A stretch of 15,236 bases of DNA. Source: a virus. Numbering within the stretch: position 1 is the first letter of the stretch; each line of letters starts with the position of its first letter. The notes beneath the pieces are model-generated. The model saw nothing but the letters and a program-made list of their open reading frames with translations, had not been told where the DNA came from and searched no databases. Location of the stretch: UHGV virus genome UHGV-1333077; one strand, written 5' to 3'. This document shows positions 311 to 2,586 of this stretch, piece by piece. The position numbers and the translations under genes are program-made.

Positions 311-661
311 GTTGGTTTGGGAGAAGCGGCGAAAAGGGATGTGGGCACAGGAGATAATCAGATACCGGATATGGGAGCATTCGCTTCTGGTTCGGGATGG
401 TTCAGGCTACCAGGTGGATATATTGTTCAGTTTGGCACTTTTTCAGGGAACACGACCCGCATTATCAGTGGACAATTTCCTATACCATTCCCTGATCAGC
501 CGCTTGTTTCAGTCGGTGTTATGTCTGATGCCGTTCAGTCAGACCCGTCGAAACCTGCCCCGCCGGTTTTGTCTGTAAATTTTAAACATATCAGTAATTC
601 AGCGTGGCGGNNNNNNNNNNTGATACCTCACAGCAATACAGATTCAGTTATATTTCGATAG
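311..661 (+). CDS. Alternative side-tail-fibre C-terminal cassette (Sv'), no credible start of its own in this orientation; would fuse to the constant stf 5' part after inversion
   Basis: Open frame begins with [10 protein letters not shown]..., the same K-x-GLGE junction as the expressed stf at 2108-2091. The track start (TTG at 293) is not credible. Contains a tail-fibre-like [13 protein letters not shown] segment. Interrupted by the N gap at 611-620; stop TAG at 659-661. A tfa-like gene follows 10 nt downstream. Confidence 0.6.
   Translation, partial: [116 protein letters not shown]
312..326 (+). repeat. Invertase crossover-site inverted repeat, invertase-proximal copy (ttggtttgggagaag)
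   Basis: Exact reverse complement of 2093-2107. Embedded in the Sv' frame as tt-ggt-ttg-gga-gaa-g (GLGE). Neighbouring bases give a partial hix/gix-like 26-bp site (TTATAAAAAAGG TT GGTTTGGGAGAA). Confidence 0.7.
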
Positions 662-671
662 GACGGTAGAA

Positions 672-1112
672 ATGCAGAAATATATTTTCAGTGCCGATAA
701 AAATGCGCTTTTCCCTGTGGAGCTTAAAATCGCTTATCAGGAATCCGGCGAATGGCCCGATGATGGAATCGAAATTGACGACACTGTTGCCGCCGAATTT
801 ATGAAGGAAGCACCAGAAGGAAAATACAGAGGTGTCATCGACGGAATGCCTGCATGGATTGATATTCCACCGCCAACTCATGAGGAACAAATTGCCGCAG
901 CCGAATTGGAAAAGCAGCAATTGATTAATCAGGTCAACGAATACATAAACAGTAAGCAATGGCCTGGTAAAGCGGCGATTGGTCGCCTGAAAGGTGAGGA
1001 ACTGGCGCAATATAATTTGTGGCTGGATTATCTGGACACACTGGAACTGGTCGATACTTCCGGTGCGCCAGATATTGAATGGCCTACGCCTCCGGCAGTT
1101 CAGGCCAGATGA
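672..1112 (+). CDS. tfa: Tail fibre assembly protein (Tfa-family chaperone), alternative copy paired with Sv'
   Basis: 146 aa. The C-terminus ...NLWLDYLDTLELVDTSGAPDIEWPTPPAVQAR carries the conserved Tfa motif (lambda Tfa ends ...VLLNRVDTSTAPDIEWPAVPVME, recalled). Its 3' end overlaps the 3' end of the minus-strand tfa by 29 bp. Confidence 0.75.
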   Translation: MQKYIFSADKNALFPVELKIAYQESGEWPDDGIEIDDTVAAEFMKEAPEGKYRGVIDGMPAWIDIPPPTHEEQIAAAELEKQQLINQVNEYINSKQWPGKAAIGRLKGEELAQYNLWLDYLDTLELVDTSGAPDIEWPTPPAVQAR

Positions 1113-1686
1113 CATCCGGCGCGGTGCTGGTATCTGTTNNNNNNNNNNCGTCAATGTAATCCAGCACAGCGTTAAGCCGGGTTGTTTCTGCCTGCGTCAG
1201 TTTACGTCCGGCCCGTAATTTCAGCTGAATCAGACTAATGGAAGCCATTGCAGCATCAATCAGTGACTGGCGTTGGATTTCTGCCGCGTCCACTGCGGCG
1301 CTATATTGTGCCTCAGTATCCGTCACCCATTTCTCACCATCCCATTTATCATATGGTGTTAACGGGGTGATAGTGGTTATATTTTCAGGGTAATCACCCA
1401 GAGCTGTGATTTCTTTCGATTCTCCTGTTTCGGTGCTATAGACGATTTCACCGCGATGGTCTGACACATATTCCCATGAGTTAAAATCCACAGAACGGCA
1501 GATTGCATAACCATCTTTATGTGTAACTGGTGCATCTAAACAAGAACATGCCGGGATACCGACGCCAACCGCAAGATACTCAGTTGATGTGGAAATATAT
1601 TCCCGCGTTTCTCCGTTGTAGTTATAAACGGTAATGAAGCCGGGTTCCGTGGCAATAAATTCACTGTTTAATTTTACCTGTGTCAT
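1084..1686 (-). CDS. tfa: Tail fibre assembly protein (Tfa-family chaperone), copy coupled to the expressed stf
   Basis: 200 aa. C-terminus ...LNAVLDYID[gap]TDTSTAPDVIWPELPEA matches the Tfa motif. Its ATG (1686-1684) overlaps the stf stop TAA (1688-1686) in a TAATG arrangement, indicating translational coupling. Contains the N gap at 1139-1148. Confidence 0.85.
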   Translation of the reverse strand: MTQVKLNSEFIATEPGFITVYNYNGETREYISTSTEYLAVGVGIPACSCLDAPVTHKDGYAICRSVDFNSWEYVSDHRGEIVYSTETGESKEITALGDYPENITTITPLTPYDKWDGEKWVTDTEAQYSAAVDAAEIQRQSLIDAAMASISLIQLKLRAGRKLTQAETTRLNAVLDYIDXXXXTDTSTAPDVIWPELPEA

Positions 1687-2586
1687 TATGCAGCCCTCAC
1701 GATGTAGTTAAATGCAATGTTTCGCGGTCGAACTTTGTGATAAGTTACGCCTTCCGAGGTTTTCGTGGCTTGAACTGTGTGGACTCCATAGGTGGGGTGC
1801 GCTTTCCCTACCTCAGAATCGTCAATACCAATTCCACTGAAGCCGCCCAGCTGAGCGGAAAATCCTGTTGCTTCCTGTGAAGAAAGTAATGCCCTGCCAC
1901 TGTCAACCCCGCGCCCGTCATCCCAGCCACGAATAAACTCACCGCGTAAATCAGGTAAGTTATTTGTTGGATAAGCCTTTGCCAGTTCCGGGTATTCTTC
2001 TGCAGAAAAAGGCGCACCATTGCATTTCAGCCAGCCTGTTGGCGGAGTGGCTGAAGGCCATGGAACAGGCACCCCAACAGGTAATGCTGAGCCTTCTCCC
2101 AAACCAAGTTTTGTGAGAGCGTCTGCGGCATTCGTTGCGCCGGTTCCGCCGTCAGCGATTGCAAGCGCACCATTGCTCCCTTTCTGCGCAAGTTTACCGA
2201 TGCCTGGGATGGTTACGGCGGTGCCGTTGATGGTAACGGTGATGCTCTGGTTTGCTGAGGTGGTGGCGAACGTCTCCCACGCGCCAATATTCTCGTCGTA
2301 CTCTTTGATGAGCTGTGACATAGCCTGTGCCAGGCCGTCGACCGAGATATTGTCTGATACCAGAATGCCGTACTTCTGGCCGCTCAGCGCCGGGGAAGCA
2401 GCTGGAGTAACCGTCATTGACGTGGCGCTGTTTACGGATGAAATCTGGAACAACTGCACCGGGTTAGACATCACGATAATCGTCTGGCCAGCGCGGACCT
2501 GTCTGGCGGGAGCTGTCCAGTTTGTGCCGGAGCCNNNNNNNNNNGGTATTTCCGTTAATAGAGATAGTTCCGGTGCTATAAATCAT
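1686..2586 (-). CDS. stf: Short side tail fibre protein (lambda Stf-like C-terminal receptor-binding/collar region); constant 5' part 2586-2108, invertible 3' part 2107-1686
   Basis: ATG at 2586-2584 with SD AGGAG (complement of 2592-2596). N-terminus MIYSTGTISINGNT, then N gap 2535-2544, then GSGTNWTAPARQVRAGQTIIVMSNP... The gap changes the apparent frame, so the track starts the ORF at 2474. C-terminal ...LGLGEGSALPVGVPVPWPS...LPDLRGEFIRGW...NIAFNYIVRAA parallels lambda Stf ...YLGAGENSAFPAGAPIPWPS...NIAFNYIVRLA (recalled). Confidence 0.8.
2093..2107 (-). repeat. Invertase crossover-site inverted repeat, stf-internal copy (minus-sense ttggtttgggagaag)
   Basis: Plus strand reads cttctcccaaaccaa. 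Lies in the stf frame as (c)tt-ggt-ttg-gga-gaa-g = LGLGE. With neighbouring bases it forms a hix/gix-like imperfect palindrome CTCTCACAAAAC TT GGTTTGGGAGAA. Confidence 0.7.

Follow-up and report, generated by a model that had tools for sequence, protein, structure and literature searches.

A side-tail-fibre locus with a probable two-state inversion switch in a lambda-like Escherichia coli prophage from a human-gut scaffold

Genes and crossover sites at the fibre locus

The virus genome UHGV-1333077, a stretch of 15,236 base pairs (bp) to which we refer as the window, carries at its left end a side-tail-fibre gene (stf), two alternative C-terminal cassettes for the fibre with a tfa chaperone gene each, and the beginning of a serine invertase gene. 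We compared this arrangement with the fibre inversion switches that have been known since the Mu G, P1 C and e14 P segments were described. The genes and sites of the locus, together with the gaps of the window, are the following:

1-240, minus strand: serine DNA invertase gene (pin-like), first 80 codons, cut by the scaffold end; PF00239 (Resolvase), 4.6e-24
300-325, no strand: invertase-proximal 26-bp crossover site, TTATAAAAAAGG-TT-GGTTTGGGAGAA, core dinucleotide at 312-313; aligns with e14 pix, P1 cixL/R and Mu gix
311-661, plus strand: silent fibre C-terminal cassette with a gp53-like C-terminal domain; PF21882 (Gp53-like_C), 7.7e-07; gap at 611-620
672-1112, plus strand: tfa, 146 amino acids, chaperone of the silent cassette; PF02413, 7.4e-33
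1084-1686, minus strand: tfa, 200 amino acids, chaperone of the expressed cassette; PF02413, 2.5e-30; gap at 1139-1148
1686-2108, minus strand: expressed fibre C-terminal cassette with a Collar domain, StfE-like and lambda-Stf-like; PF07484, 2.8e-15
2094-2119, no strand: fibre-proximal 26-bp crossover site, TTCTCCCAAACC-AA-GTTTTGTGAGAG, core at 2106-2107
2109-2586, minus strand: constant 5' part of the side-tail-fibre gene stf (MIYSTGTISINGNT...ADALTK); gap at 2535-2544
611-620, 1139-1148, 2535-2544, 2796-2807, 4283-4292, 6681-6690, 7787-7845, 10037-10046 and 13724-13741: nine runs of N, scaffold gaps inherited from the source scaffold

The constant part of stf is 89-95% identical to that of annotated E. 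coli fibre genes, which are fused to either a Collar-type or a gp53-like cassette. In the assembled orientation it continues into the Collar cassette, for which the identities are 57% with e14 StfE and 45% with lambda orf-314 (Stf; E = 7e-21). The stop codon of this cassette and the start codon of the 200-amino-acid Tfa overlap (TAATG), and this Tfa shares 85% identity with e14 TfaE and 35% with lambda Tfa (E = 2e-34). The gp53-like cassette and its own tfa gene (311-1112, plus strand) are opposed to stf and are without an N-terminal part; three relatives (L005, L020 and L004) express this cassette as a fusion. The 146-amino-acid Tfa encoded behind it is 55% identical to e14 TfaP. At their 3' ends, the two tfa genes have 29 bp in common, and an overlap of the same length is present in e14. 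A direct comparison of the two cassettes revealed no significant similarity beyond the GLGE motif encoded by the crossover sites.

The sequence TTGGTTTGGGAGAAG is located at positions 312-326 of the plus strand, and its exact reverse complement at 2093-2107. This 15-mer has exactly two matches in the window, even if up to three mismatches are allowed; dinucleotide shuffles gave a mean of 0.38 matches at three mismatches, and simple arithmetic puts the number of exact 15-bp partners expected by chance at about 3e-5. The repeat can be extended to 20 nucleotides (nt) at 90% complementarity. Both copies are translated in one phase as G-L-G-E, giving VGLGEA on the plus strand and LGLGEG on the minus strand. 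A third or further site, as in a shufflon, was not found anywhere in the window when up to three mismatches were allowed.

We aligned the two copies and their surroundings with the annotated boundaries of the P1 C and Mu G segments and with the e14 inverted repeats, which were located in this work. The alignment delimited two inverted 26-bp imperfect palindromes, each with 12-bp half-sites around an asymmetric 2-bp core (TT or AA). The fibre-side site, written as the reverse complement of 2094-2119, reads CTCTCACAAAAC-TT-GGTTTGGGAGAA. The corresponding e14 sites are CTCTCGAAAACC-TT-GGTTTGGGAGAA on the fibre (stfP) side and TTTTCATAAACG-TT-GGTTTGGGAGAA on the invertase side, the P1 site is ...CCTAAACC-TT-GGTTTAAGAGAA, with the crossover annotated inside the TT core in the P1 record, and the Mu site is ...CCAAAACC-TC-GGTTTACAGGAA. 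From the alignment with the P1, Mu and e14 sites, the perfect 15-mer therefore corresponds to the inner half-site together with the core and one additional base. As is usual, the two window sites differ in their outer half-sites. The published e14 repeat TTGGTTTGGGAGAAGG is matched in 15 of 16 bases at the invertase-proximal site and in all 16 at the fibre-proximal one, and the synonymous positions of the 15-mer are identical in both window copies and in e14. This e14 repeat and its complement flank the e14 P segment of 1,797 bp, the inversion of which by PinE and PinQ was demonstrated by sequencing and quantitative polymerase chain reaction (PCR) (PMC12529663, 2025). Both orientations of e14 P coexist in clonal cultures, as seen by sequencing and PCR (PMC4272514).

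The invertase gene starts at 240-238 on the minus strand, 72 bp outside the left repeat, and its translation (MIYGYARVSTNHQ...) carries the catalytic Ser9 and the active-site motif Y-x-R-V-S-T-x-x-Q. A preliminary description of this DNA, made from the sequence without database searches, had reported the perfect 15-bp inverted repeat, its common codon phase within the two fibre reading frames, and two unrelated, convergent fibre C-termini with a tfa gene each, of which the lambda-Stf-like one was said to be on and the other silent. All of this was confirmed by the searches (PF07484, PF21882 and PF02413 twice), the translations and the continuity of stf with the Collar cassette. The suggested alignment with gix, cix and pix sites yielded the 26-bp sites, which extend outward from the 15-mer. 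A Gin-like invertase about 70 bp outside the right repeat had also been described; the invertase gene is present at this distance, and it lies on the left in window coordinates.

The window represents a human-gut metagenome scaffold, the end of which falls within the invertase gene. The ENA scaffold ERZ28624274:QINJ12-1_SAMN00792064_METAG-scaffold_934 (15,230 bp) carries the Tfa protein encoded at 672-1112, and the first 3,400 bases of the window match this scaffold, N-runs aside. Among complete genomes, those of E. coli are the nearest. Parts of the region have identities of 92-99% with E. coli prophages, and 2,704 of 5,426 complete genomes match window 1-3100 in some part. The N-runs are already present in the ENA source record, where one of them comprises 40 N instead of the 10 N in the window. 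This identifies them as scaffold gaps, across which neither frames nor distances are informative; the segment length of 1,796 bp is approximate, as such gaps lie inside it. The N-runs divide the tail gene J into two listed open reading frames (ORFs) and disrupt the frame of stf. An apparent frameshift in stf, with the ATG at 2586 out of frame with an ORF of 262 amino acids, was rejected for the same reason, namely that these gaps are of arbitrary length in the ENA source scaffold.

Opposite orientations in related genomes

Inverting 314-2105 in silico keeps the reading frame and fuses the constant part of stf via GLGE to the gp53-like cassette. E. coli EC2001 (L005) has flanks collinear with the window (1-326 at 98.5% and 2093-3305 at 94.9% identity) and an interior on the opposite strand. 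The alignments overlap precisely on the 15-mer, and the annotated gene order is the mirror image of that in the window. The same relation was observed between two E. coli genomes, TC24 (L021) and GPEC60-12-649 (L020), in which the 4,326 bp that lead up to the repeat are 99.6% identical and the interiors beyond it are inverted relative to each other. Both have the chromosomal neighbourhood ompW-yciCBA-tonB-yciI and the invertase WP_000639140.1 in common, and the sequences GCTCTGCATTAC and CGGCGAAAAGGG, located just inside the sites, are swapped between the invertase and the fibre side. The breakpoints of homology seen in the comparisons that involve L005 and L020 fall inside the fibre-proximal site.

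We then searched complete E. coli genomes for the junctions of both states. At a coverage of at least 80%, the invertase-side junction was found in the window state in 24 genomes and in the flipped state, for which a synthetic query was used, in 64 genomes, with identities of up to 97-98%. Queries for the fibre-side junction had no place covering at least 80% of their length, owing to the mosaic nature of the constant part and the cassettes; the window state of this junction was spanned by three genomes and the flipped state by two. This comparison of sequences shows the segment in both orientations between related E. coli genomes.

An inverted pair of exact 15-mers lies beside an invertase gene in six of the six loci fetched by then that hold both segment ends and an exact pair, namely L002, L003, L005, L006, L007 (the source of the window) and the e14 locus L015. 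L020 and L021, which were fetched later, likewise hold the inverted pair. A single 15-mer was found only in contigs that end within the segment, in SZQ1, where the second site has three mismatches, and in ES6, where the insertion sequence IS1 replaces the far half. In lambda, there is no match to the 15-mer with up to three mismatches, though lambda Stf is homologous from exactly the site onward. Therefore, the repeat is not merely a generic coding motif of fibre genes.

In E. coli ES6 (L004), the region 2301-5094 is a decayed switch with a fixed gp53-like fusion and one site left, and IS1 stands in place of the second cassette and the invertase.

Proposed mechanism, alternative explanations and known systems

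We consider it very probable that this region is a homologue of the e14 P segment, in which site-specific inversion switches the side tail fibre of a lambda-like E. coli prophage between two states. The minus-strand late operon is read from the constant part of stf (2586 to 2109) into whichever cassette lies behind the fibre-proximal site. In the assembled state, this is the Collar cassette (2108 to 1686), followed by the gene for the TfaE-like chaperone (1686 to 1084). By analogy with Hin, Gin, Cin and Pin, dimers of the small serine recombinase (240 to 1) would bind both 26-bp sites and synapse, cut both strands at TT/AA (312-313 and 2106-2107), turn by 180 degrees and rejoin the ends. Inversion by these enzymes is classically activated by an enhancer bound by Fis. 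The asymmetric core is expected to permit inversion only. In the flipped state, as predicted in silico, the constant part would be in frame with the gp53-like cassette and its chaperone gene, and a lysogen population would presumably release virions with two receptor specificities, a form of host-range bet-hedging.

The preliminary description had already placed the region with the Mu G, P1 C and e14 P segments and had proposed that inversion exchanges both the C-terminal domain and the chaperone on the constant stf part. Every element of this architecture that is visible in the window is indeed present, and the exchange is in agreement with the in-frame fusion obtained in silico and with the relatives in both orientations. 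We regard the locus as an ordinary, uncharacterised example of the fibre inversion switches of the Pin/Gin/Cin family, with the crossover sequence of e14.

Several observations weigh against this interpretation. Only 80 codons of the invertase gene precede the scaffold end, which falls before the DNA-binding domain, and gaps interrupt both cassettes and the constant part, with the intactness of the fibre gene judged from relatives. An exact-match scan of the JGI metagenomes for the fibre-side junction returned a single contig, in the same orientation as the window; the corresponding scan of IMG/VR gave no match. Moreover, the G-N13-C Fis core common to pinE, gin and cin at nt 71-85 of the gene reads CAGCGGGTTGTGAGA in the window gene and is not conserved. 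In the P1 record, the enhancer is annotated at cin nt 19-90. A candidate proximal Fis core remains at nt 20-34 of the window invertase gene, the Fis consensus being highly degenerate.

The truncation of the invertase gene could also mean that the switch is a fossil or locked in this prophage, because the invertase is truncated or inactive or because the prophage is decaying. Decay is indeed seen among the relatives, with one site and IS1 in ES6, three mismatches in the second site of SZQ1, and a DUF6453-family gene that is a pseudogene. However, the loss of the gene after 80 codons at a contig end is a limit of the assembly and not a mutation, and these 80 codons are identical to those of intact proteins found on at least 1,000 contigs. 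Furthermore, neither site has a mismatch in its inner half or core, and the tail module looks complete. We therefore regard a locked switch as distinctly unlikely. A different kind of main function would be a role in the lysogen and not in the virion, in which case inversion creates a short chimeric fibre protein that blocks the adsorption of other phages. Inversion of e14 P, at the same repeat, yields StfE2, which inhibits the adsorption of T2 (PMC12529663). In the window, an ORF (296-661) whose ATG at 296 lies immediately outside the site extends into the silent cassette, and the equivalent ORF is annotated as a coding sequence in RefSeq. But no Shine-Dalgarno sequence is evident upstream of this ATG, and a scan with promoter and terminator consensus sequences, which gave seven promoter-like matches compared to 5.6 in shuffles, placed none that could drive 296-661 on the plus strand and detected nothing convincing around the switch. 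Unlike e14, the window also carries an apparently complete tail operon, so that host-range switching needs no extra assumption. Such a defence role, modelled on StfE2, seems very unlikely to us as the main function; it could exist in addition to host-range switching, since neither role excludes the other.

It is hardly conceivable that the 15-bp identity is a conserved GLGE coding motif or due to chance and that the rearrangement arose by homologous recombination. Both copies are translated in the same phase, and the motif recurs in many fibre genes, which would agree with a coding motif. The preliminary description had itself named a widespread motif of non-invertible stf genes as the finding that would speak against a switch, and this was not what we observed: lambda stf is without a match at up to three mismatches, and the pairs adjoin invertase genes, as they do in six of the six two-ended loci with an exact pair. 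In addition, the synonymous positions agree between both copies and e14, and the outer half-sites fit the pattern of cix, gix and pix. A length of 15 bp is also far below that of an efficient RecA substrate. Chance, a coding motif and homologous recombination are effectively refuted by the site alignment, the absence from lambda and the reciprocal junctions of TC24 and GPEC60-12-649.

Among the known systems, the inversion switch proposed here is most directly compared with the e14 P segment. The inner half-site and core are identical (TTGGTTTGGGAGAAG), and the size is about 1.8 kb in both cases. Both have convergent stf'-tfa cassettes, an invertase gene directly outside one site and the constant fibre part outside the segment. 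In contrast, the full-length relatives of the window invertase are only 59% identical to PinE and have a different helix E, the constant fibre part is unrelated to StfP, the outer half-sites differ, and the second cassette is only distantly TfaP-like (55%). Upstream, e14 has baseplate-type genes (jayE, ymfQ), whereas the window has a lambda-like module with J and the tape measure. The Mu G/Gin and P1 C/Cin systems share with the window a constant part (Sc) with alternative ends (Sv and Sv'), each with its chaperone (U and U'), as well as 26-bp sites with a 2-bp core and an adjacent invertase gene. Their segments of 3 kb and 4.2 kb have long perfect repeats and much larger cassettes, however, and their fibre proteins have no significant similarity to the window cassettes; only U' matches the 146-amino-acid Tfa, and weakly. 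Gin and Cin are 55-57% identical to the relatives of the window invertase, and the Mu core is TC and not TT. Hin and the hix sites of Salmonella belong to the same recombinase family, have the same site architecture and are the reference for the invertasome, the Fis enhancer and subunit rotation (PMC3798978, PMC4513852), but Hin flips a promoter rather than coding cassettes, is 47% identical, and differs from the window lineage in the gating residues F105, H107, M109 and K51. Finally, Min of p15B, the shufflons and a three-repeat prophage locus of enteropathogenic E. coli use sites of this family within genes for fibres or adhesins (PMC4272514). These are multiple-inversion systems, whereas the window has two sites only and would be a two-state switch.

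The invertase lineage and the surrounding genes

The 80 encoded residues of the invertase are identical in all 80 positions to intact E. coli recombinases of 182-184 amino acids, and 42-45 of the 80 are identical to Gin, Cin and PinE in a gap-free alignment. Full-length relatives with the same first 80 residues carry the Resolvase domain and PF02796 (HTH_7). The best solved structures for them are those of Gin (3UJ3, E = 8e-63; 4M6F, 2e-61), with the resolvases far behind. In NCBIfam, neither the invertase nor the fibre parts reached the cutoff of any family. The 182-amino-acid form occurs on at least 1,000 contigs and is termed a Pin-like DNA invertase by some sources. The lineage is an outlier: the 184-amino-acid form is 59% identical to PinE, 55% to Gin, 57% to Cin and 47% to Hin, and those four are 66-83% identical among themselves. 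The two forms differ only in the C-terminal DNA-binding domain, and both adjoin the same pix-type sites (L005 2125-2679 and L002 2692-3240).

Helix E of the relatives reads SGRYNFRNILSAAQYESDL, whereas the classical enzymes have MGRFFFHVM(G/S)ALAEMEREL. Thus, the counterparts of Hin F105, H107, M109 and L112 are N, R, I and A, respectively, and F106 is kept. An F105N exchange makes Hin independent of Fis. Of the basic residues of helix B, the window invertase retains the counterparts of Hin K47 and R48 and has Ala in place of K51. One of the C-terminal variants is PinE-like and keeps Hin Q151, R154 and L155; the other does not. F106 is essential in Hin (PMC4513852), and the residues uniquely conserved in Fis-dependent invertases are K47, R48 and K51 (basic, helix B) together with Q151, R154 and L155 (helix 1 of the DNA-binding domain; Hin numbering; PMC3798978). 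A synonymous-site profile of the 5' end of the invertase gene against a relative of 80% identity revealed no clear embedded element.

Judging by the gene sequence, the lack of the distal Fis core may mean that activation differs from the textbook scheme of Fis and enhancer. Because the gate residues of helix E are N/R/I/A and both the basic residue K51 and the distal Fis core are lacking, the invertase could be regarded as a distinct, uncharacterised Pin-like lineage that is common in E. coli prophages and perhaps regulated unlike the Fis- and enhancer-dependent invertases. We think this reading unlikely. If true, it would provide a naturally enhancer-independent or differently gated DNA invertase that acts on canonical pix sites. 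The sole research potential of the locus lies in this divergent lineage, whose activation controls may differ from those of Hin and Gin.

Directly upstream of the invertase start, we noticed a perfect 11-bp inverted repeat at 245-271 (minus strand), which gives 12 pairs when folded as RNA. The Shine-Dalgarno sequence AGGAGA is located in the 3' arm of the repeat, and no T-run follows. The 91-nt region folds at -27.5 kcal/mol (z = -5.1 relative to shuffles). This hairpin could hold translation of the invertase low or stop read-through from the fibre operon.

As a whole, the window covers the end part of a late operon of the lambda type, which runs on the minus strand (U, V, G/T, H, M, L, K, I, J ... 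stf) and for which the following genes were assigned:

14660-15058, minus strand: tail terminator (PHROGs)
13915-14652, minus strand: major tail protein (PHROGs)
13452-13775 and 13123-13443, minus strand: tail assembly (G/T-type) genes (PHROGs)
10629-13145, minus strand: tape measure (PHROGs)
Minus strand: minor tail proteins M, L and K and tail assembly protein I (PHROGs)
3356-7157: tip-fibre and GpJ domains (Pfam)

As far as can be read from these assignments, the lambda-like tail module looks complete, and the operon has a fibre gene downstream of J, a Stf-type C-terminus and Tfa.

The same module of invertase and segment is located behind myovirus baseplate genes in L008 (5153-6441) and L020 (5769-8504), and behind lambda-like tails elsewhere (window 2109-7157). 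Many matches in E. coli, plasmids and phage-plasmids begin or end at 307-312 and 2108-2120, and many cover nothing beyond the stretch between these limits. Since the matches are bounded at the sites and the module also occurs behind baseplate genes, the crossover sites also bound horizontal exchange. That crossover sites act as exchange boundaries in fibre genes is an old idea. One module of invertase and segment is joined to both lambda-like siphovirus tails and myovirus baseplates, with the crossover sites as the boundaries of exchange.

Several public contigs with an identical Tfa (L008, L009, L010 and L012) end within the invertible segment, and the scaffold of the window itself ends 311 bp past the left site. 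Contig ends in or near the segment are the usual pattern of assembly breaks at DNA present in two orientations, and they are suggestive of heterogeneity, as a hint and not as proof. At this switch, assemblies of gut E. coli prophages can be expected to break or to be frozen in one of the two states, and the switch explains orphan C-terminal fibre fragments in annotation.

Two further features lie between J and stf. The remnant of a DUF6453-family gene (2640-3000, minus strand; gap at 2796-2807) is located between stf and a small lipoprotein ORF and is annotated as a pseudogene in relatives. The lipoprotein ORF itself (3091-3324, plus strand, 77 amino acids) is opposite to the tail operon, has the lipobox LTAC and matches phrog_12984 'lipoprotein' (1.3e-56), with no match in Pfam. 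The same position is occupied by lom in lambda and by the exclusion lipoprotein gene cor in E. coli ES6, and the ORF is a candidate for a moron or superinfection-exclusion gene.

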